A model generated the notes under the pieces. It was not told the origin of the DNA and did not search any database. It was given only the letters and a program-made list of their open reading frames with translations. DNA of 63,999 nt, the filler included, from Stramenopiles sp. TOSAG23-6 (lineage: Eukaryota), in the NCBI GenBank assembly GCA_900128565.1. It is 6 parts of 6 records of this genome, joined end to end, with 100 filler letters (N's around TTAATTAATTAA, not from the genome) between each part and the next. Parts side by side here need not be neighbours in the genome. Positions count along the whole stretch, not along the records: positions 43,282 to 53,922 come from LT636297.1; 5 more parts are not named here. One strand, given 5' to 3'. The translations under genes and the position numbers were made by a program. Shown here one piece after another: positions 10,746 to 61,076 of this stretch (position 1 is its first letter; each line of letters begins with the position of its first letter).

Positions 10746-10845
10746 NNNNNNNNNNNNNNNNNNNNNNNNNNNNNNNNNNNNNNNNNNNNTTAATTAATTA
10801 ANNNNNNNNNNNNNNNNNNNNNNNNNNNNNNNNNNNNNNNNNNNN
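10746..10845. other. Artificial contig linker N-TTAATTAATTAA-N
   Basis: All-frame stop 12-mer at 10790-10801 between N runs; repeats every ~10.8 kb. Confidence 0.97.
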
Positions 10846-10866: not shown

Positions 10867-10924
10867 ATTTGCTCTCTCCTTTAAATAAAGTCTTTCGGAG
10901 AAAATTTTCTGTTGAAAAGTCATC

Positions 10925-11628
10925 ATGCCTCGCGAAATTATCACTTTGCAGGTAGGCCAATGCGGTAATCAAATTGGAATGTCATTCTGGGAGCAGCTCT
11001 GTAATGAGCATGGTATTCGTCCAGATGGATCGCTTGAGGACTTTGCACAATTAGGAATGGATCGTAAAGACGTATTTTTTTACCAAGCTGACGACGACCA
11101 CTACATTCCACGTGCACTTATGATGGATTTAGAACCTCGTGTTGTAAAAGGAATTCAAAATGGTCAATACCAGAAGTTTTTCAATCCTGAAAATATTTTC
11201 ATGTCTACTGACGGTGGTGGTGCAGGAAATAACTGGGCAAGTGGTTATCACCAAGCCGAGGGTGTTCATGAAGAATTAATGGACATGATCAACCGAGAGG
11301 CCGATGGTAGTGAAAGTTTGGAGGGATTTGTTCTGTCTCATTCAATTGCTGGTGGGACAGGTTCTGGTATGGGATCTTATCTTTTGGAAAAACTCAATGA
11401 CCATTTTCCAAAGAAACTAATTCAAACGTATTCTGTATTTCCTAATCAAGATGATGCCGATGTCGTCGTACAGCCGTATAACTCCATGTTAACCCTCAAA
11501 CGTCTCACTTTGAATGCTGATTGTGTCATGGTATTAGATAATACCGCACTCAATCGGATTGCCACAGATCGGTTACATATCGCCAATCCAACAGTCAATC
11601 AACTGAATAGTCTTGTAGCGACTGTCAT
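10925..11628 (+). CDS. TUBG1: Gamma-tubulin, first exon only
   Basis: [35 protein letters not shown]. Ends at the intron donor at 11629; the expected continuation is absent. Confidence 0.95.
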
Positions 11629-11720
11629 GTATGTTTTATTTTTTTTCAATTTCGAATTCATTTTTCGTACGAAATTTTGTACCTAACGATTTTTTTTTGA
11701 AATATTTTTTCAAAATACAT
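11629..11720 (+). mobile_element. Introner-like intron 17, GT-AT, 92 nt, joins two different genes
   Basis: Consensus-like copy between gamma-tubulin and PI4K exons. Confidence 0.85.
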
Positions 11721-12655
11721 ATGTTCCTCATTTATGTAGTGCAGAAGATATGGGGCCTTCTCGATTTCCTGTAGATCAAGTTCAACGTATTGCAATATTT
11801 GATGTACGAACAATCAATACTGACAGGCATTCAGGTAATATTCTCGTAAGTAAAGAGAGTACAATTAATCGAAAACTGGTAGAAACTAATTGTATTCGTG
11901 CTCCAAGGTCATCTTCGCTTGTTAACTTTTCTGATGACATGAAGGCTTCTTCAACTATGTGGCCTTTATCGGCGAGATCAACATCATCGCGAGCCTCGAT
12001 ACAAGAGAAAATAAAGATGTCAAACAAAATTGATAAAACGGAACATCAGAAACAATCAAAAGAAGACAATATCTCATGCTCTACTGCTTCACTTAGAGGT
12101 AGCTCAAGTACATTGGCTAAAAGAGATGGACATGACAGTGGTGATATTGTGCTAGTTCCTATTGACCACAGTTTTTGCTTACCTCGTGTAGATTGTTTAG
12201 CTGATGTAACTCTTGACTGGGTCAAATGGCCACAAACAAAACAGCCCATGAGTAAAACATTACTTGACTACATTGAAGGACTTGATGCAGAGGCAGATGT
12301 GAAAATGTTAAATTTCGCCTTAAATGGGGCCATTAAACCTGAAAGTTTGCGAACTCTTCGTGTCGGCACTTTATGGCTGAAAGAAGCTGCTGCGGCTGGG
12401 CTAACATTACAAGTGATAGGTCAAGCTCTATGCAGGGGTGCGGACAAACAAAACGAACCATCGGATATTGAGAAGATCGTAGCAATCGCATTTCAAGCAG
12501 AAAATTGTGCAGGATTTAAAAAAGTAAATGAAGAATCTACACAAGTTTTTATGAGTGCTATTAAAAGAGCAATGAGGATGCACATACAAGTTCTACAAGA
12601 CCAAAACAAAATAAAAGATACAAATGGTACGAATGATACAAAAGAAGTTGTATGA
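11721..12655 (+). CDS. Type II (gamma-like) phosphatidylinositol 4-kinase-like, 3' exon only
   Basis: YVPH…SAEDMGP…IAIFDVRTINTDRHSGNIL…LVPIDHSFCLP…W.WPQ motifs. Confidence 0.85.
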
Positions 12656-21589: not shown

Positions 21590-21689
21590 NNNNNNNNNNN
21601 NNNNNNNNNNNNNNNNNNNNNNNNNNNNNNNNNTTAATTAATTAANNNNNNNNNNNNNNNNNNNNNNNNNNNNNNNNNNNNNNNNNNNN
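21590..21689. other. Artificial contig linker
   Basis: TTAATTAATTAA at 21634-21645 inside Ns. Confidence 0.97.
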
Positions 21690-30303: not shown

Positions 30304-32427
30304 TTAATCAATCTCAATTATAACGTTCGAAACTTGGTTAGAGCTGTTATTCCCGATATTCCCACTATCAGAAATATTTTCAACATTTGGTTGTTTAGGG
30401 TTAGGGTTATTCCCACTATCAGAAATATTTTCAACATTTCGTTGTTTCTCTATCTCTGAACGCTTGAACAATAATCTAAGTGGTTTTAGAACAGCACATG
30501 CAAATGGTGGGGGGAACATATTACCAACTAATTTATGGCAATCTGCAATAGCTGTAGATATAGATGTACTTTGGGGACTAGGAACGAATACATGTATTGT
30601 GAAAAAACACGAAATCAAAAAAAATCGTTAGGTACAATATTTCGTATGAAAAATAAATAAATTTGAAATTGAAAAAAAAATAAAACATACATGAGTATCA
30701 GGAACACCTTGGATTGAGGCTCGTTCACGAATTGTTAAAGGTCGTCCACTTGAATAATGAGCATTTTTCTGTTGACAAATAATTGTTGGAGAAATATCAT
30801 CCTTATCGAGTCGTTTTTGAAATCGTTTCATATTAGACCATAGGATATGATTCATCACACCATTCTGTGATGATACATTTGGTCTTAAATATTTAGTATA
30901 TGTAGAGGCATTTTCACAGTTTGTATACGGAGTAACTAAAGTATAGATTTTTTTAATATCATCTATACATTTTGTACTTAAATTTCGCTCTCTATAAAAT
31001 CTAAGAGGATTCCCAAGCCCAGAAAATGCATCTTTCAAAGTTAGAGCTGGTAGAAGTGTACTCCACTCTTCATTATCAGCTTCTGAACGATGATCTTTAC
31101 ATTTTGTTGCAATGTGAATTGAACAACTCTGTGCAGAAAATGTCTGCGCATCCATTGCTTGTAATTGTTTTCTATTAGTAAATCTAGGCTTATATTTATC
31201 AGGATGTTTATGTGTCATCAATGGAGATTTTGGCTGTGGCCAACCTATAGCAGCAGCAAACACAACAACACGTATTCTACTTTGCGGAATACCAAAATTA
31301 CAAGCTTGCATTTGTTTGGTATAGACTTGATATCCTAAATTCCATAACTTGACAGTAATATCAATGTATTTTGGAAAAATATTTCAAAAAAAAATTAAAA
31401 AATTTGTTTGGTACAAAATTATCAAAAAAAAAAAATTCGAAATTAAAAAAAAATAAAACATACATAATCAATGAAGCAGATTTGTCACTGTTTGTTCCTT
31501 GACTTCCCATAATTCCAGAAACATTTTCAATTACAACATAACTAGGACGAAATCGAGCAATACCATCAATAAAATTATCCTTGTATATACAACATCGAGG
31601 ATCATTGATACTTCTACCCTGTTTTGTGAAAAAATATTTCAAAAAAAAATCATTAGGTACAAAATTCCGTACGAAAAAAAAATTCGATTTTTTTGTTGAA
31701 AAAAAAATAAAACATACATTACCAAAGTGTCCTGTTGTATTTGCAACACTCGCTCCTTGACATGGTGGGCCAGCAACGAGAACTGCATATGTTACTTCAC
31801 CAGTCTTTGGAAAATATTTAGAGATACAATTATCATTTTTAATTTTGTGGATTATAGAGTTCATATCCTTTGTTACGTCTAATTTACATATTGTTGAATC
31901 TTTAAAATTGTATTGACTAGTAGCAACTGCAGCATCCCAACTATCAATCGCAAATTTGACATTAAAACCAGCTTGTTTAGCACCAAGTGAAAATCCACCA
32001 GCACCACAAAAAAAATCCATCACATATGGCGGATTCATATCCTTAACTTTATCATAAAAATTTTCTCGTGGTCGCCAAGAATTACCATATAAAAGTGGAA
32101 CTTTCATTACATTATAACAATCAGAATTATTATATAAATGTGGACGATCTTCGCGTCTGAGACAACAAATACCATGTTGGGTCTCAAATGAAGGATCTTT
32201 TAAAGAGTGATCGCTATCAGCTGAATATTCTAATCTATATCGAAAGACATCCGCGTCAGACGATGATAGTTTGGATTGTGCATTACACGAATCGACCCAT
32301 GTACTGTGAATTTTTTTTAAAAATATTTGTTAGGTACAAAATTAACTACAAAAAAAAATTGTGAAAAAAAAAATTCAAAATTCTTTTTTTTTTTTTGAAA
32401 ACGTACATTCCTCATACGTACCAGAAA
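30304..32427 (-). CDS. DNA (cytosine-5) methyltransferase (5' truncated)
   Basis: Exons 32427-32407, 32298-31718, 31618-31464, 31363-30691, 30591-30304. Motifs DFFCGAGG, GPPCQG, ENV, GYQ…FGIPQSRIR, LTIRERASIQGVPD, LVGN. Confidence 0.88.
30592..30690 (-). mobile_element. Introner-like intron 19, GT-AT, 99 nt
   Basis: Gives QGVPDTH|VF. Confidence 0.85.
31364..31463 (-). mobile_element. Introner-like intron 20, GT-AT, 100 nt
   Basis: at|GTATGT…AATACAT|t; branch-like motif reads CCAAAC. Confidence 0.85.
31619..31717 (-). mobile_element. Introner-like intron 21, GT-AG, 99 nt
   Basis: at|GTATGT…CCTAAT…AAACAG|ggt. Confidence 0.88.
32299..32406 (-). mobile_element. Introner-like intron 22, GT-AT, 108 nt
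   Basis: at|GTACGT…CCTAAC…CAGTACAT|gg. Confidence 0.8.
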
Positions 32428-32527
32428 NNNNNNNNNNNNNNNNNNNNNNNNNNNNNNNNNNNNNNNNNNNNTTAATTAATTAANNNNNNNNNNNNNNNNN
32501 NNNNNNNNNNNNNNNNNNNNNNNNNNN
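32428..32527. other. Artificial contig linker
   Basis: TTAATTAATTAA at 32472-32483. Confidence 0.97.
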
Positions 32528-43181: not shown

Positions 43182-43281
43182 NNNNNNNNNNNNNNNNNNN
43201 NNNNNNNNNNNNNNNNNNNNNNNNNTTAATTAATTAANNNNNNNNNNNNNNNNNNNNNNNNNNNNNNNNNNNNNNNNNNNN
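43182..43281. other. Artificial contig linker
   Basis: TTAATTAATTAA at 43226-43237. Confidence 0.97.
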
Positions 43282-43335
43282 GGTACAAAATTTCGTACGA
43301 AAAAAAAATCAAATTTGAAAAAAACTAAAACATAC
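43282..43335 (-). mobile_element. Introner-like intron 27 (5' part)
   Basis: at|GTATGT…TTCGTACGAA…; contig ends inside. Confidence 0.8.
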
Positions 43336-43859
43336 ATGGGTTTCCGTTGTAGTCTTCAATTTTTAAGAACCCAGCACGCTCATAAAGACGTATGGCTTTC
43401 ACTTGCTTAACTCCTGTATCAAGTCGAACAGTTTGAGCACCAAGAGATTGTGCGGTAGCGATAAGCTGTTCGAGAAGCTCCTTACCTAAACCACGTCCAC
43501 GGTGAGTCTTGATTACAAACATGCGTTTTATTTCTGCAATATGAGTTTCCAGCATCTTGACACCAGCGCCAGCGATTACTTCTCCTGTGGATTTATCGCG
43601 CCCGACTAGATAAGCACCTCTTGGACGAAGTAAGTCCAATTTCGTTGCTTTTGGCCCAACGTCAAAGGAAAAACCTGGATACATGTAATGAGTGAAATGC
43701 AATAAAAGCAGAAAGGGTGAGTGAAACGTGAATGGGAGCAATTAGGGGGCAAGTTGGAGTTGTCGATTTTACATACAAACTTGCTACTTCTTCTAAAAAT
43801 AGTGCCAATAGCATCTTTGCTGGAGGTGCATCCGAGGGCTCCTCAGACCACAGTAGCAT
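43336..43859 (-). CDS. GNAT acetyltransferase (3' truncated)
   Basis: Exons 43859-43777 and 43682-43336; AEIKRMFV…RGRGLGKELL…LDTG…AIRLYERAGF. Confidence 0.88.
43683..43776 (-). other. Intron 28, GT-AT, 94 nt, interior unlike the repeat consensus
   Basis: tt|GTATGT…CCCTAAT…ATTACAT|g; gives EVASLYPGF in the GNAT. Confidence 0.8.
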
Positions 43860-44163
43860 GATGCAAAGTTGTATTTGAATGGATTTGCATATGGAATGTT
43901 TTCTTTAACAAGACTTCAGAAGCAGAAGAGAAATAAAATAATAGCAAAGTAAAAAGTTGATGACATATCAATGATATATCATTCTGTCCCGAGGCCATTT
44001 TAGCTAGGGTTAGGGTTTAGCCCTCAAAGTCTTCGAAAAGTCGAATAAGACGAATGACATTTCGACATTTTGTACCGACGACATCGCTCGAACGAACTCT
44101 CGAGCTTCTCGTTAGTTTCTTCTCACACCTAAATAATCTTTAGAAAGGTGGTTTACACATTAA

Positions 44164-46932
44164 ATGGCAGGGCCTCAAGAAAAAAAGGCTGTTGCCATTG
44201 AAGTTGAATCTAATGATAAAAAGAAGAAAGGTAAGAAAAAAGGTAAGAAAGGAAAAAAGGCGAAGGAAGCTGTAGTAGAACTATCAGAAGAGGATGAGGC
44301 AATGAAGAATGCGCTCGAGTTGGCTGTTCGACGTGTACAGGATAAGTCTGCTGTGGTACAAAAAGCGGCACTTAAAACTCTTCGCGACACAATTAAGTCT
44401 GCAACTTCAGCGATGACTTCTGTTCCAAAACCATTAAAATTCCTTGCTCCCCATTACCGTAATCTGGTGAGTTATTTTGACGAAAAGTTGGTGACTCAAT
44501 CGGCAAACAAAACCGAGCTAGCTGACATTCTTGCCCTTGTTGCGATGAGTATGTCCAACGGAAAGAAATATAACCGAGATAGTCTCCGATTTAAACTTCA
44601 AGGCTCCCGAGGAGATTTAGGAGCTTGGGGAGATGAATTTGTTCGCAATCTTGCCGGTGAGTTAGGCCAGGAATATGGAGAAAGAACAAGCTCTGAACCT
44701 CCTGTGGATACAGCGGATCTCCTAGTCTTAGTTGATGAAGTATTGACTTTTAACATGAACCACAATGCGGAAGCAGACTCTGTGGACATGCTTATGGAAG
44801 TCCAACAGTTATCGCGCCTTCTTGATGAACGTCTTACATCAAAAATGGATGCTCGTAACGCGGAAAGACTCTGCAACTACTTAATGCGTTGTGCTAAATA
44901 CGAAAGTGACCCTGATGAGCGCCAAAATGTGTATAAAACTTCGTTCGAGCTATTTATGAAACACAAAAAAGCGTCTGATGCTCTTCGATGTGCCATTAAA
45001 ATGAATAATGATGAGTTAGTGAAACGCGTTTTTGAGATGCCATCTGTAAAATCAGACACCCCGATGCGTAAGCAGCTTTGTTTTATTCTCGGTCGACAAA
45101 GAGCTTTCACGTTTCAGTTAGATGAAGATGAAGATGATGATGCATCCGAGTTGAACGAAATTATTGGGAACTATTCGATATTATCTGATCATTTTAGGCG
45201 TCTTGCTACAACTTTAGACGTACAAGATGCAAAGACTCCCGAGGAGGTGTATAAATCTCATTTAGGTGACTCTGGACGAACTGGTCTTAATGCAGATGGA
45301 GCAGCTGTAGAGTCTGCTAGACAGAACGCAGCATCGACATATGTTAACGGTTTCGTTAATGTTGGTTATGGTAAAGATAAATTGATAACTGCTCAAGGCG
45401 ATGATGGTCAGAACGTCTGGTTGTATAAGAATAAGGATCGGGGTATGCATAGTGCAGCAGCATCTCTAGGTATGGTATATCAATGGGATGTTGATGAAGG
45501 TTTTGGCGCGCTTGATCGTTTCCTCTATGTTGACAATATCAATATCAAAGCTGGGGCAGTTCTTGGAATCGGTGTTTGCAACGCTGGTGTATATAATGCT
45601 GAAGTCGATGCCGCTATTGGACTGTTACCTGACTATCTCACAGATGATACAAAACTTTCCAGTGATGGAAATAGTCTATTAAAAGTCTCTGCTTTGTTAG
45701 CTTTTGGACTTTCATATGTTGGCACATGTAGAGAAGAAGTTCAAGACCTTGTTGAACCATTTATTGAAGGTGAGGACATTAGCTTTGATGTCACAGCTAT
45801 TGCTGCTATATCATTAGGTATGGTATTTGTTGGTTCTGGTGATGAAGATGTTGCCACTTCCTTGATCGAACGCTTACTCTCAGCTAGTGATGCTGAATTA
45901 GATACCCCTGGTGCACGATTTCTATGTCTTGCTGTTGGACTCGTCTTTCTAGGTCGCGAGGAAGCTGCCGATGCAACACTTGAGGTGTTTAAGACAATTG
46001 AAAATAAGATAGGACACTTTGCAATTCTCACTGTCAAGACCTGTGCATATGCCGGCAGTGGTAACGTTCTTAAAGTTCAAGAAATGTTACATGTTTGTGC
46101 TGAACATCTCGATGAAAAAAATGCTGCATATCATCAGATGGTTGCCACTCTTGGCGTGGCTCTTCTTTCTGTAGGTGAAGAAGTAGGCTCTGCGATGGCA
46201 ATGCGAACAATGGAGCATTTATTACAATATGGAGAATTGCCTGTAAAGCGTGCTGTTCCTCTAGCCATTGCTCTTTTACACGTTTCAGACCCTGACTTCA
46301 GTGTAGTAGATACTGTTAGTAAGTTGAGTCACGATTCGGATGATGCCGTTGCACAGAATGCCATCCTTGCACTTGGTATTATATCTGCTGGTACAAATAA
46401 TTCCCGTGTCGCTGGTCTTCTTCGCCAGCTTTCTTCTTTTTACAAGAAACAGGCGAATCACTTGTATATTGTACGCATTGCGCAGGGTTTGTTACACATG
46501 GGTAAAGGGTTAGTTACGTTAAATCCTGCCCATTCCGGTGGTCTTCTTGCTTCGAACGCATCATTGGCCGGCCTTCTGGTAGTTCTTTTTGCTGCATTTG
46601 ATCAAAAGAATACTTTACTTGACAAAATGCATTATCTGTTGTACTCTTTGTGCACTGCCTGTGTGCCTAGAATGCTTGTTACACTTGATGAAGAACTGAA
46701 TCCTCTGAAGGTACAGGTACGTGTCGGAGAAAGTGTAGACGTTGTTGGACAAGCAGGAAATCCGCGTGCAATCACTGGTTTCCAGACATTTGATACCCCT
46801 GTGTTGATGTCCACGGGAGATCGCGCAGAATTGGTTGGTGAGGAATATGAACCTTTGACGAGTGTAATTGAAGGCTTTGTCATTTTAAGAAAAAAGAAAA
46901 ACAAAAACACTGACGGGGAGTCGAAGGAGTAA
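44164..46932 (+). CDS. RPN1: 26S proteasome regulatory subunit RPN1/PSMD2
   Basis: SMTSVPKPLKFL, SARQN, YAGSGNVLKVQ, GQAGNPRAITGFQT; intronless. Confidence 0.97.
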   Translation: MAGPQEKKAVAIEVESNDKKKKGKKKGKKGKKAKEAVVELSEEDEAMKNALELAVRRVQDKSAVVQKAALKTLRDTIKSATSAMTSVPKPLKFLAPHYRNLVSYFDEKLVTQSANKTELADILALVAMSMSNGKKYNRDSLRFKLQGSRGDLGAWGDEFVRNLAGELGQEYGERTSSEPPVDTADLLVLVDEVLTFNMNHNAEADSVDMLMEVQQLSRLLDERLTSKMDARNAERLCNYLMRCAKYESDPDERQNVYKTSFELFMKHKKASDALRCAIKMNNDELVKRVFEMPSVKSDTPMRKQLCFILGRQRAFTFQLDEDEDDDASELNEIIGNYSILSDHFRRLATTLDVQDAKTPEEVYKSHLGDSGRTGLNADGAAVESARQNAASTYVNGFVNVGYGKDKLITAQGDDGQNVWLYKNKDRGMHSAAASLGMVYQWDVDEGFGALDRFLYVDNINIKAGAVLGIGVCNAGVYNAEVDAAIGLLPDYLTDDTKLSSDGNSLLKVSALLAFGLSYVGTCREEVQDLVEPFIEGEDISFDVTAIAAISLGMVFVGSGDEDVATSLIERLLSASDAELDTPGARFLCLAVGLVFLGREEAADATLEVFKTIENKIGHFAILTVKTCAYAGSGNVLKVQEMLHVCAEHLDEKNAAYHQMVATLGVALLSVGEEVGSAMAMRTMEHLLQYGELPVKRAVPLAIALLHVSDPDFSVVDTVSKLSHDSDDAVAQNAILALGIISAGTNNSRVAGLLRQLSSFYKKQANHLYIVRIAQGLLHMGKGLVTLNPAHSGGLLASNASLAGLLVVLFAAFDQKNTLLDKMHYLLYSLCTACVPRMLVTLDEELNPLKVQVRVGESVDVVGQAGNPRAITGFQTFDTPVLMSTGDRAELVGEEYEPLTSVIEGFVILRKKKNKNTDGESKE

Positions 46933-47111
46933 GGCACATTGTGTATTGGTACCACCTTTGGCTAAATACGTATTTTTTTTTAGAGTTGATAATATTCAAT
47001 AAAGAAGAATATGTCCTGCAGAAAATAGTACTATTTAATAGTTTTATATTTCGACCGTTTATGTTTTTTTATTGACTGTGGTTGTCTTTATTTTTTTGTC
47101 TTTTTCACATA

Positions 47112-47642
47112 TTAATAGTTACTACTCTGTTGCATTATACTCATAAACTCACTTTCATTAATCAAACCATCAGCATCCTTGTCAAATTCATCAATCATTG
47201 CTTGTAATTCATCGTCTCCAATATCTTCCCCAAGTTCTTTAGAGATTAACCTCAAGTTTTTTACTGAAATATTACCAGAGGCGTCGGCATCGAATAAACG
47301 AAAGGCTTTTTTCATTTCTTCTTCTGGATCTCGTTGAGAATATTGCTGTTTTAGTATACTAACAAATTGTTCGCGCGTAATATTACCAGTGTCATGTACG
47401 TCTACATCTCGTACTAGTCGCAACACATCGGCCTTTTTGACTGCGAAACCAAGCGCCCTCATGGCTACTTTTAATTCATGGTAATCTACAGTTCCTGTTT
47501 TATCTGCATCAAATAATGTAAATGCCTCATCAATTTCTTTAATATCATCATCATTTAGCGGCATTGTAGGTGGATCTCGAGTCTTCAATTTTCCTCTCAA
47601 GCCGAAACCCATTCCATCGACAGACCGTTGAAAGAGACTCAT
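47112..47642 (-). CDS. CETN3: Centrin (centrin-3/Cdc31 type)
   Basis: [29 protein letters not shown]; four EF-hand positions. Confidence 0.9.
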
Positions 47643-47879
47643 TATTAAATTTTAAGAAAGCGCCTTGATGATGAGATTCTTTCGAGTTTGTTTTGAGTTT
47701 GGAAGTTTCAAAAATTTGAAAAAATCACGAAAAATCGAAAAACCGAAGGACATTAGTCGGAAGTCCGCTTTCATTTAAGTTCACGCTCGGAGTTGTTGTT
47801 TATAAGTTTAACTCAGTAGTTCCCAGTAGATTCACTAAAAGTTTGACTTTCCACAAAAAGACGAGGTGATACAAAGATA

Positions 47880-48875
47880 ATGCTGCACTCTTTCCAACGT
47901 GAAAGCATCAATGAACTATCAAGTAGAAGAAGAAAACAATCGCGTAAACTACAAACAAAATATAGTAGTGAAATAAGAAGCAGTGAGTGGAGTAATTCCG
48001 CCATCACCGATAACGAATATTTTCAAGAAAGTCGTGTTTCTAAATTAGAAAATATTACGATGAAAAGACAAGTTACACCCAATTTCTTCGCTAAATATTT
48101 ACATCGAGGAGAAAGCAATTTAACCGATTTAAATTGTGAACTCAACAACGATAATACTTGCAAACTCATTGAAGATTTCTTGAAAGGCATGCTCGGAACT
48201 CATTTAGAAGAAGCCTCTAGTATTGAGGATAAAATTTTATCTCCAGACACTTTGAAGAGCACACCATTAATATCTACATCAATCAAAAATTCGGAAAGCA
48301 TTCTGGGTGATGCACCAATATCACCAAGAATACTAGATAGCACTTTGAATACGCCAGACAGTATTCTTGGTAATGCACCAATATTACCAAATACCACATT
48401 GAATACGCCAGACAGCATTCTTGGTGATGCACTAATATTACCAGATACCACTTTATTACAAGATACCACTTTGAATACGCCAGACAGTATTCTTGGTGAT
48501 GCACCAATATTACCAAATACCACTTTGAATACGCCAGACAGTATTCTTGGTAATGCACCAATATTACCAGATACCACTTTGAATACGCAAGACAGTATTC
48601 TTGGCGATGCACCAATATTACCAGAAACCATTTTGAATACGCCAGACAGTATTCTTGGTGATGCACCAATATTACCAGATATCATTTTGGATACGTCAGA
48701 CAGTATTCTTGGCGATACACCAGAAACTCTTGCACCAGTATCATTTTTTGGAGCATTCCCAACAAAACAACAGTTAGGAGATTATGAAAAAGATCATTAT
48801 AGACAACGAATCATTGACTTTTTGAACGAAGAATGGGATACCGCTTTACTGGAGGAGGTGGTTAATAGCGAATAA
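47880..48875 (+). CDS. Hypothetical protein with 16-aa tandem repeats
   Basis: 331-aa ORF containing TLNTPDSILGDAPILP repeats. Confidence 0.55.
   Translation: MLHSFQRESINELSSRRRKQSRKLQTKYSSEIRSSEWSNSAITDNEYFQESRVSKLENITMKRQVTPNFFAKYLHRGESNLTDLNCELNNDNTCKLIEDFLKGMLGTHLEEASSIEDKILSPDTLKSTPLISTSIKNSESILGDAPISPRILDSTLNTPDSILGNAPILPNTTLNTPDSILGDALILPDTTLLQDTTLNTPDSILGDAPILPNTTLNTPDSILGNAPILPDTTLNTQDSILGDAPILPETILNTPDSILGDAPILPDIILDTSDSILGDTPETLAPVSFFGAFPTKQQLGDYEKDHYRQRIIDFLNEEWDTALLEEVVNSE
48290..48722 (+). repeat. 48-bp minisatellite, about 8 copies
   Basis: ttgaatacgccagacagtattcttggtgatgcaccaatattaccagatacca units. Confidence 0.92.
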
Positions 48876-53922: not shown

Positions 53923-54022
53923 NNNNNNNNNNNNNNNNNNNNNNNNNNNNNNNNNNNNNNNNNNNNTTAATTAATTAANNNNNNNNNNNNNNNNNNNNNN
54001 NNNNNNNNNNNNNNNNNNNNNN
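53923..54022. other. Artificial contig linker
   Basis: TTAATTAATTAA at 53967-53978. Confidence 0.97.
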
Positions 54023-59091: not shown

Positions 59092-59841
59092 TTACAGGAG
59101 TCCCTCTGTATCGATGCAATACAGCGGGTTAATGCGCAAGCAATAATAACATTTAAGATATTCTGGGCATGGTGCTCGTAATCGCTCAGAACCTCCCATA
59201 TCTTCATGACATATATTATGTACAAAAGATGGACAGTCCATAATATATTTGAGATAACCTTTGCACATGTCTTTGTACTTTGGATCTATGGAAGCACAGA
59301 GATTTCTCTGCCCGGTAACCAACCCCATGGCCTCGACCTCTGCAGCCTCCGCTCCTTTTTCAGACGAGTATCCATTGTCTACACCTTTATCTCCAGTTTG
59401 AATCATGAGTTTGCACACCTTGCATTCTTCTACTCCTGTAGCAATCTCATATTTTGGTGCCACATAAAAACCTTGTCCAAACCAATTGTGAGGAACTTTC
59501 GATCCAAGTACGGCTTCCCCCCCAGCATCACCACCACCACCTGCATCCTCACCAAGAAGCTTACGTTGAGATCCTTGTTTATCTGATCGAAGTTGCTTAA
59601 AATGATAGTCACCTGCCTCTTCAACCAGAGTAGGAACGGGAACAGAACCTTTGAGGTCGGTGGATTCATGTCGTGGTGGCGGTGGAGGCGTCCATTCACC
59701 TACTTTGAATTTTTTTCTCGACATATACATTTTTTTGATATCTTCCATCTTCACAGCATGTATCATAACCATCTCAGATAAGAAAATACACAAAATTAAA
59801 CGTTTCATTTTGATGCGAATAAAATTTGAAGAGGAAACCAA
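59092..59841 (-). CDS. Secreted Cys-rich protein, possibly saposin-like (paralog A)
   Basis: Signal peptide; ECKVCK…C…MC…CPSFVHNICHEDMGG…CYYCLRINPLYC. Confidence 0.75.
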   Translation of the reverse strand: MVSSSNFIRIKMKRLILCIFLSEMVMIHAVKMEDIKKMYMSRKKFKVGEWTPPPPPRHESTDLKGSVPVPTLVEEAGDYHFKQLRSDKQGSQRKLLGEDAGGGGDAGGEAVLGSKVPHNWFGQGFYVAPKYEIATGVEECKVCKLMIQTGDKGVDNGYSSEKGAEAAEVEAMGLVTGQRNLCASIDPKYKDMCKGYLKYIMDCPSFVHNICHEDMGGSERLRAPCPEYLKCYYCLRINPLYCIDTEGLL

Positions 59842-60148
59842 ACTTCAAGTGTTAAACGAAATTACGAGGAGAGGGAGAGGAAGAGCAGTTCAAAATGCCG
59901 TTTTTGAATTCGTATGAATTAGGTACGAAAAGTAGAAAATTCCGCAAAACGGTCCAAATGGCTTCTTTAATACTGGTGGAACAAACATGTTTTATGATCA
60001 AATTTAATTAATAATAAACTAATTTCCTCCTCAAAACCAAAGAAGTTATTCCATCAAGCTTGGCATAATAACATAATTACGCTTAGATAAATTAGAGGGG
60101 AAACTGCTAAAATGACTAAAAGTTTCAATTAATTAATACACGCCAATC

Positions 60149-60868
60149 TTACTGGAGACAGTACAAAGGGTTAATACCTAAACAATACCAACATTTCAAG
60201 TGATCTGGGCAAGGAGATCTTAGTCTAAGTACACCGCCCATATCTTCTTGGCAGATATCGTGAACAAAAGCAGGACACATACTTAATTGCTTTTGATATG
60301 GGATGCACATTTCTCTGAAATCTTCCCTGACGAGGTTGCACTGATGAGTTCCAGGAAAAGGAAAACCGTTTTTTAACTGAGAAGTCTGAGCTTGAATTCC
60401 ATAATTTTCTTCAACACTAATTGGAAATAATAATTCTTTCGTTGCCGCCATCAATTTTTTGCAAAGGTTGCACTCATCTACGCCTACAATGGGTTCATAA
60501 TGAGGGGCAACATACTTTTCTCTGTTGAACCAATTTCGCGGAACTTTTAAAACTTTACTTGACAAACTTGATTGCAACAACTNTGAACGACGTCGTTTGA
60601 ATCGATATTGTTCAAATCGTGAGGCTTTGGGTATGGGTATCTCATGAAAAACTTTAGCCTCTTCTATAGGTGGTACTGGTGGTACCCACTCGCCGACTTT
60701 AAATTTCTTTCTTTCTTGGTACAGTTTACTCATGTCTTCAACCTCAATTGCATCACTGTTTTGTGCGGCACCCAGAAGAATAAGTACAGTAATCAAGATA
60801 TTTTTCACTGAAGACTTAAATAGCATATTAGTGTTTTGGACCGCGTTTATTGAATAATACGAGATCAA
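60149..60868 (-). CDS. Secreted Cys-rich protein, possibly saposin-like (paralog B)
   Basis: Shares RKKFKVGEW.PP, KVP.NWF and ICxEDMGG…CLxINPLYC with 59092-59841. Confidence 0.75.
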   Translation of the reverse strand: MISYYSINAVQNTNMLFKSSVKNILITVLILLGAAQNSDAIEVEDMSKLYQERKKFKVGEWVPPVPPIEEAKVFHEIPIPKASRFEQYRFKRRRSXLLQSSLSSKVLKVPRNWFNREKYVAPHYEPIVGVDECNLCKKLMAATKELLFPISVEENYGIQAQTSQLKNGFPFPGTHQCNLVREDFREMCIPYQKQLSMCPAFVHDICQEDMGGVLRLRSPCPDHLKCWYCLGINPLYCLQ

Positions 60869-61076
60869 AGAAAATCAGCTATCTTAGCAGCAACTAAAAT
60901 TTAAAGTTTCGTATAATGGTATCTTGTTTGAGAGATTGAGACGACGACAATACGAGAGGACGCTCCCCTTTTTCAAAAATTTAAAATTTTGAAAAATCCA
61001 AAAAAGAATTTCAAATTTGATTTGAAATTGAATTTTTGAAAAAAAATATATCACGAGCAGGTTTGTGTTGCTTTTA

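Follow-up and report, generated by a model that had tools for sequence, protein, structure and literature searches.

Few rules of nuclear splicing are as well conserved as the AG at the 3' end of introns. In a 63,999-nt stretch of DNA from Stramenopiles sp. TOSAG23-6 (the window), a GNAT gene is interrupted by a segment that begins with GTATGT and ends with AT, which raises the question of whether this segment is removed from mRNA and, if so, where such an end comes from. The first-pass annotation had seen in it a decayed copy of the poly-T intron element of this genome (family A), diverged throughout except for GTATGT, CCTAAT, TACAT and a length of about 95 nt. It described the sequence accurately: positions 43776-43683 on the minus strand span 94 nt that start with GTATGT, carry CCCCCTAAT at 43749-43741, end in ATTACAT and contain no AG, while the longest T run is 4 and the palindrome TTCGTACGAA is absent. 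The lack of AG is weak evidence, as 10.7% of 5000 mononucleotide shuffles are also AG-free, and CCTAA[CT] is present in 8.5% of 2000 dinucleotide shuffles. In the window, separate contigs are joined by N-flanked linkers that have stop codons in every frame (10746-10845, 21590-21689, 32428-32527, 43182-43281 and 53923-54022), so genes across them are not linked.

A GT-AT intron in a GNAT gene

As the annotation had proposed, removing the 94 nt restores the frame, fusing an exon 1 of 27 codons to the GNAT domain (Table 1). A search with exon 2 returned 924 proteins, from which we took the best 120 and, leaving out P0001 (the protein itself), built a profile of 119 homologs. The product of the 94-nt removal scores 160.0 bits against this profile, and 14 in-frame GT/GC-AG alternatives all score lower (120.9-152.7 bits). 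One of these, a 106-nt GT-AG pair at 43780-43675, was rejected: it scores 146.5 bits and deletes a junction Tyr kept in 118 of the 119 homologs. The closest homolog among the matches listed, P0002, spans the junction without a gap; its junction codon is Met (ATG), where the homologs have Leu in 71 and Met in 35 of 119. The junction can slide from -1 to +4 through short repeats, giving six equivalent registers. All six lack a terminal AG, and the two that begin with GT finish in AT.

Table 1. The GNAT gene and the signals of its first intron (window positions)
Feature	Position	Strand	Evidence
GNAT intron 1, 94 nt, GT...AT; family B, with the GT-AG intron of uS4/RPS9 as its sister	43683..43776	-	homology, RNA join, alignment
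GNAT exon 1; first in-frame ATG 43859; ends with TT, first two bases of a Leu codon	43777..43859	-	gapless alignment to P0002 N-terminus; X3 contig cover
GNAT exon 2, Pfam Acetyltransf_1 (PF00583), E 9.3e-19	43336..43682	-	Pfam profile
GNAT intron 2, 5' part; family-A introner truncated by contig end	43282..43335	-	
5' splice site of intron 1, GTATGT, exon T before it	43771..43776	-	U1 pairing
CCCCCTAAT, branch motif of the first-pass annotation; probably not the branch site	43741..43749	-	candidate A 60 nt from end; absent in uS4 sibling
ACTCACC, best branch-site candidate, A at 43718 (-36)	43716..43722	-	same motif at -36 in uS4 sibling; inferred
Pyrimidine-rich 3' tract (77% C+T), acceptor ...TTACAT	43683..43717	-	best-conserved stretch against uS4 sibling, which ends ...TTACAG

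For evidence from RNA, we aligned four seawater metatranscriptome runs (X1-X4) to positions 43282-48300 at 90% likeness. In the poly(A) run X3, a single 151-nt contig (depth 5.5) places 43678 directly next to 43773 and so leaves out 94 nt; its short side covers 35 nt. This contig has no other letters over 43773-43888, and the exon TT is therefore retained. The second poly(A) run, X4, does not cover the gene, and contigs of X1 and X2, which come from one sample, read through the intron unspliced, so that removal is seen in one of four runs. Family-A repeat depth exceeds 2300 in X1 and X2 and is 0.65 and 0 in the same bin of X3 and X4, which suggests that X1 and X2 hold DNA or unspliced RNA. A search of the genome assembly found no near-identical GNAT paralog. 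We conclude that 43776-43683 is a real GT-AT intron, supported in RNA by one contig.

Among the best 120 of 924 matches, GNAT homologs other than P0002 look bacterial, and the one with an organism name is a Solirubrobacteraceae protein, which would suggest that the gene was acquired and gained its intron later, so that the intron is not an ancestral eukaryotic one. In JGI metagenomes, a scan for GNAT relatives yielded 12 loci (29-43% identity), none of them with an orthologous intron. For the truncated intron 2, a family-A 3' end (...ATACAT) followed by exon 3 lies on contig C2874. The public protein P0001, encoded on a contig of 8456 nt, corresponds to this GNAT but lacks intron 2 and has His in place of Tyr in exon 3; set against 43282-43335, it may reflect a presence/absence polymorphism of the family-A copy. 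Telomere-like TTAGGG/CCCTAA words occur at 44000-44023, where a short gap separates the divergently oriented GNAT and RPN1 genes, and similar words occur inside some diverged introns.

A sister intron in the uS4 gene

GNAT intron 1 does not resemble the family-A consensus. An nhmmer search with the family-A profile gave no match to it, and its best alignment to any of 164 family-A copies scores 14, a value that its own shuffles surpass (up to 18). A DNA search of the assembly instead found a relative in an intron of the uS4/RPS9 gene (C281:4720-4762, with a duplicate on contig C280; 91% across 43 nt at E 1.3e-9), and the reverse search from the uS4 intron matched the GNAT copy only. Aligned over their whole length, the two introns share the same base in 76 of 104 columns, with a score of 86 against -7.4 +/- 8.8 (maximum 18) for 1000 shuffles, and the 5' half of the alignment alone also lies above all 1000. 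The intron is thus neither a decayed poly-T copy nor reduced to a few motifs, as the annotation had it; a full-length homolog exists outside family A.

The uS4 intron is 104 nt long and reads CAG|GT...TACAG|G, between the conserved codons RLDQ|ELTL as in P0122 and P0123. The closest named homolog of this uS4, P0122, is labelled MAST-3-type, and the named matches are mostly stramenopiles, which places the organism among the marine stramenopiles. The flanks of the uS4 intron are AG/AG, as in a target-site duplication, and those of the GNAT copy are TT/AT. Both copies carry ACTCAC, with the A of its CTCAC at -36, in GNAT upstream of the 77% pyrimidine tract, and we regard it as a candidate branch site. 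The CCTAAT that had been taken for a retained branch signal fits poorly: its CTAAT (A at -60) is found in the GNAT copy only.

Similar introns at unrelated gene positions are a feature of introners, and GNAT and uS4 provide this in two copies only; we call the pair family B. Two DNA searches and one pattern search of the assembly yielded no further copies. The pattern gave 6 matches, three of them known copies, against 6 in the control. A similar sequence pair on contigs C575 and C1218 was discarded as not intronic by frame. Since an AT-ended intron has an AG-ended sister, the splicing machinery appears to accept both ends.

This pair changes what can be said of selection. AT, TACAT and the length of about 95 nt can all be inherited from the insertion, so one GNAT intron does not show that they are selected, and an obligatory AT end is contradicted by the AG of the uS4 sibling and by 34 of 164 family-A ends. 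The annotation's broader claim, that a non-AG acceptor is a property of the machinery, is supported: homology and one RNA contig place removal at a non-AG end, and this is not confined to the young poly-T family because the GNAT intron belongs to a different, more diverged pair. An AT-specific acceptor does not survive. GT-AG ends in old introns elsewhere were to count against that claim, and the AG end of the uS4 intron goes part of the way.

Family-A ends and an altered U1

The poly-T element allows the origin of intron ends to be examined in number. Its pattern matches 2053 times in the assembly (G000; 21.1 Mb, 6236 contigs) against 5 in the control, duplicated contigs and overlapping matches included. 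We bounded 169 distinct copies in 911,686 nt of partly overlapping loci and dropped 5 that had been selected for AG; in 155 of the remaining 164 the frame stays open after splicing across 60+60 nt. Over all 164, the intron ends in AT in 130 copies, AG and GT in 9 each, TT in 7, AC in 4, AA in 2 and TG, CT and TA in one each, statistics that probable chimeras at the repeat can blur. When the exon dinucleotide and the intron end are both other than AT, they are identical in 18 of 24 copies (permutation mean 1.6, p 2e-4), which is the mark of a 2-nt target-site duplication. Family-A ends copy the insertion target, and AT is therefore largely inherited from it. When only one side is AT, an AT intron end with a changed exon occurs 29 times, against 10 for the reverse (p 0.003), and six of these 10 changed ends are AG; the TT/AT pair is seen in 5 copies. 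We conclude that the acceptor is relaxed, AT-biased and AG-tolerant rather than AT-specific. Because family B has only two copies, target copying in it is extrapolated from family A and would hold by analogy.

The duplication leaves a second register, NN...AC, in which the downstream copy is kept. Under it, 2 of the 20 asymmetric junctions whose frame is open acquire a stop, and the His of an N-H motif, which we take to be that of a SET domain, becomes Gln; the GT register is favoured in family A. The family-A branch A lies between -28 and -56 (median -38), a range that includes the CTCAC of GNAT and uS4 and excludes the CTAAT of GNAT at -60. In 45 of 164 copies splicing evidently passes over an AG that lies between branch and end, an argument against a model in which the first AG is found by scanning. 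The family-A termini also show, by eye, a 4-nt GTAT/ATAC symmetry.

Several individual family-A copies stand out. Copies flanked by GT/GT, TT/TT and AA/AA lie in intact-looking frames, kinase-like and others, at L071 (+2408, +7148), L042 (-7765) and L040 (+4771), and imply GT-GT (or GT-AC), GT-TT and GT-AA introns. A cytosine DNA methyltransferase-like gene in the window (30304-32427, minus strand) has four family-A introns, one ending in AG. The gamma-tubulin gene at 10916-12655 is cut by a copy at 11629 and followed by an unrelated kinase-like frame, probably through chimeric assembly or recombination at the repeat. Away from these elements, window positions 59092-60874 (minus strand) encode two paralogous, secreted-looking Cys-rich proteins with a common proline-rich N-terminal motif.

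Introns outside family A are few. A stricter coding-model scan of 457,676 nt gave 26 GTA[CT]GT candidates with a family-A match and 1 without, and a single candidate from 586 GT[AG]AG[TA] donor sites, compared with 1-3 for control hexamers; it missed the GNAT intron and is insensitive, so it shows only that other intron classes are rare. Genome-wide, AG|GTAYGT...YAYAG matched 112 times against 134 in the control, and non-poly-T GT...CAT 160 times against 499; a de novo scan at loose settings was too noisy to use. We found three introns that are not family A, two ending in AG and one in AT. One of these is a candidate, a 94-nt AG|GT...AG segment (L150:1503-1596, plus strand, on C244) that joins open frames and has no Pfam support. 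RPN1 (window 44164-46932), centrin (47112-47651) and most of Prp8 (C84) are uninterrupted, which suggests an intron-poor ancestor before the introner burst.

The snRNA genes for U5, U2, U1 and U4 form one tight tandem cluster (L034; C1146:9-645, with a copy on C6122), and U6 lies on C3740. The 5' end of U1 is AAACGUACAUG where the Rfam consensus has AUACUUACCUG, a difference at positions 2, 5 and 9; the gene scores 54.1 bits (E 7.5e-12), under the Rfam cut-off of 69.5. The reverse complement of this 5' end, CATGTACGTTT, reads as the donor of family A together with the adjoining exon bases (CAT|GTACGTTT), and the changes give full complementarity to that donor, exon position -1 included. With this U1, 160 of 164 family-A donors form more Watson-Crick pairs than with the consensus, although a matrix served to select the donors at positions +1 to +9 and part of this match arises by construction. 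The selection left positions -3 to -1 free, and exon -1 is T in 143 of 164 copies. A search of the assembly for the canonical U1 pattern found none, leaving the altered U1 as the only one found. The sequence suggests a U1 altered to match the commonest mobile intron, and this U1 presumably serves the spliceosome.

Family B fits this U1 less closely. The GNAT donor forms 6 Watson-Crick and 2 G-U pairs over 11 positions, a gain over the consensus of one G-U only, and for the uS4 donor the consensus U1 is the better partner (9 pairs, against 7+1 with this U1), which on this one example would suit an older intron. By the standards of U2-type introns, GNAT intron 1 has the GT donor, with GTATGT, this 6+2 pairing and a canonical U6 ACAGAGA box; it lacks the 3' AG, being AG-free, joined in RNA over 94 nt and non-AG in every register. 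The U2 branch-pairing site and U5 loop 1 match Rfam, as does the U6 box, Prp8 is a 2021-codon open frame close to human over the aligned region, and Slu7 and one U2AF2-like gene are present. The U2AF2-like protein (L116:1108-3069, minus strand, on C433) has two RRM1-like repeats and a UHM; both repeats fit the RRM1 part of TIGR01642 and none the RRM2 part. U2AF1 reads the 3' AG. We did not find it among 16 PF00642 matches, 4 further PF18345 loci or motif matches, in a fragmented assembly where absence proves little; a missing U2AF1 may have a role in the relaxed acceptor. A zf-U1 search gave one match, more like WBP4 than U1-C and presumably WBP4.

Origin of the AT end and comparison with known systems

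We consider it probable that GNAT intron 1 is a U2-type intron from a minor introner family, with end bases supplied by the target, a relaxed, position-based choice of the 3' site and a U1 altered to family A. A small mobile element of a second, rarer intron family, whose only other detected copy sits in uS4/RPS9, would have inserted into the GNAT gene, bringing GTATGT as its donor, a branch site that lies about 36 nt before its end, and a pyrimidine tract with TAC as its last three bases. Its last two bases would come from a 2-nt target-site duplication, AG in uS4 and AT in GNAT. The major spliceosome would cut at GT in the normal register and find the 3' site chiefly from its distance to the branch, about 30-45 nt, together with a YAC/YAY context (YAC-NN), preferring AT, taking AG readily and accepting GT, TT, AA and AC less often. 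Changes at positions 2, 5 and 9 would have made U1 fully complementary to the dominant family-A donor. The boundaries, the RNA join, the sibling, family-A target copying and the U1 sequence are observed, and the branch site and positional rule are inferred. A larger step is conceivable, and we offer it tentatively: the major spliceosome may have been rebuilt around a transposon, with U1 retuned to the exon side as well, the AG check dropped (possibly through loss of U2AF1), AT selected and older introns drifting towards AT. In that case nature would have produced a GT-AT spliceosome whose Prp8 and U2/U5/U6 core is unchanged.

The uS4 intron could also be an older canonical GT-AG intron that was copied into GNAT, for example by reverse splicing of the intron of a highly expressed mRNA, its AG later becoming AT. 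The detection of only two copies, the textbook CAG|GT...CAG|G context of uS4 with its better fit to consensus U1, and the mismatch between the upstream TT and terminal AT in GNAT all speak for this; family-A ends follow the target, however, and pairs with a changed exon and an AT end, TT/AT included, are common there. The ATG junction codon of P0002 also fits an AT target, although the mixture of Leu and Met among the homologs keeps it from being decisive. We judge this course of events unlikely; it would show tolerance of, or selection for, AT and strengthen the case for the latter. Still less credible is the annotation's own view, a family-A introner eroded to selected signals under an AT-specific machine. 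The same donor, similar length and similar ...TTCAC...TACAT end, together with an AT steadier at intron ends than in exons, favour it, and families A and B may share a remote common origin. Against it stand whole-length homology to a GT-AG intron, the absence of family-A similarity above shuffles, a misplaced and unconserved CCTAAT and the non-AT ends within family A itself.

Two further readings question the intron or its route. The site could be an ordinary one, with the segment kept and translation starting at an ATG that overlaps the intron end, or with the 106-nt GT-AG pair in use, and with the X3 join derived from an intron-less allele. The overlapping ATG, from which P0001 was called, the unspliced X1 and X2 contigs and the in-frame pair itself agree with this. 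Exon 1 encodes a conserved N-terminal helix, though, the 106-nt cut loses the nearly invariant Tyr, and the unspliced runs are those with the repeat depth expected of DNA or unspliced RNA, unlike the poly(A) runs, which makes this reading very doubtful. U12-type introns have an RTATCCT donor and use U12 and U6atac snRNAs, and their branch-site consensus resembles the family-A CCTAAC. The AT-GTAT...ATAC-AT reading of family A and its short terminal inverted repeats might also suggest that this minor spliceosome acts in an AT-AC-like register, or that removal is guided by structure without a spliceosome, as it is in euglenids. The retained TT in X3 excludes the register shifted by two bases at GNAT, and that register gives stops in two genes; the GNAT donor does not fit RTATCCT, U12 (RF00007) and U6atac (RF00619) were not found in the assembly by searches that are weak because their controls were silent, and the intron folds no better than its shuffles (z 0.89). 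We regard such a route as the most improbable of all. Our preferred reading thus stays with a U2-type intron of a minor introner family.

In the literature searched, mostly outside subscription journals, we found no report of GT-AT introns or of this U1 in stramenopiles. Standard gene finders will mis-annotate a stramenopile lineage with such introns, and the two sister introns, AG- and AT-ended in one genome, form a test pair for 3' site choice. In the accessible text of the studies concerned, the closest precedent is the tunicate Fritillaria, in which F. borealis and F. pellucida have transposon-derived, non-canonical U2 introns with target-site duplications that are handled by the major spliceosome (PMC13326754, PMC11282704). 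There, AT leads among the 3' ends, with 44% in F. pellucida and 34% in F. borealis, a YAY triplet precedes the donor and forms the last three bases, and canonical introns are a minority (PMC13326754). The transposon origin, YAY on both sides and 3' AT are shared with our case. The differences are that the donor stays GT here, where F. borealis has AG and others, that the host is a stramenopile and that U1 has base changes; for Fritillaria, duplication of U2AF subunits is reported, and the discussion turns to m6A changes and not to divergent U1 genes (PMC13326754), whereas here one U2AF2-like gene and no U2AF1 were found in a fragmented assembly. In Micromonas and other introners, as far as the source's available text describes them, short repeated elements bring one splice site and the duplicated target gives the other, the target supplying AG (PMC11282704); here it mostly supplies AT, and AG-less insertions survive. 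A curation of introners, in its available portion, lists AG and AC as 3' sites, other families being checked by hand (PMC12130899).

For U1, the excerpted source describes AACAAAC in Entamoeba and ACGUAC in Mastigamoeba as co-evolved with atypical donors (10.1101/2022.06.08.495308). As there, our U1 complements an atypical donor, and both the +4 change (ACGUAC) and an extra A opposite +7 have precedents in that material. Unlike the changes described there, which concern intronic positions, ours also includes position 9, facing exon -1, changed from C to A. This change suggests co-evolution of a host snRNA with a mobile element and bears on which of the two adapts to the other, the introners or the spliceosome. 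In contrast to the donors described for Entamoeba and Mastigamoeba, the donor matched here is that of a mobile element with non-AG acceptors.
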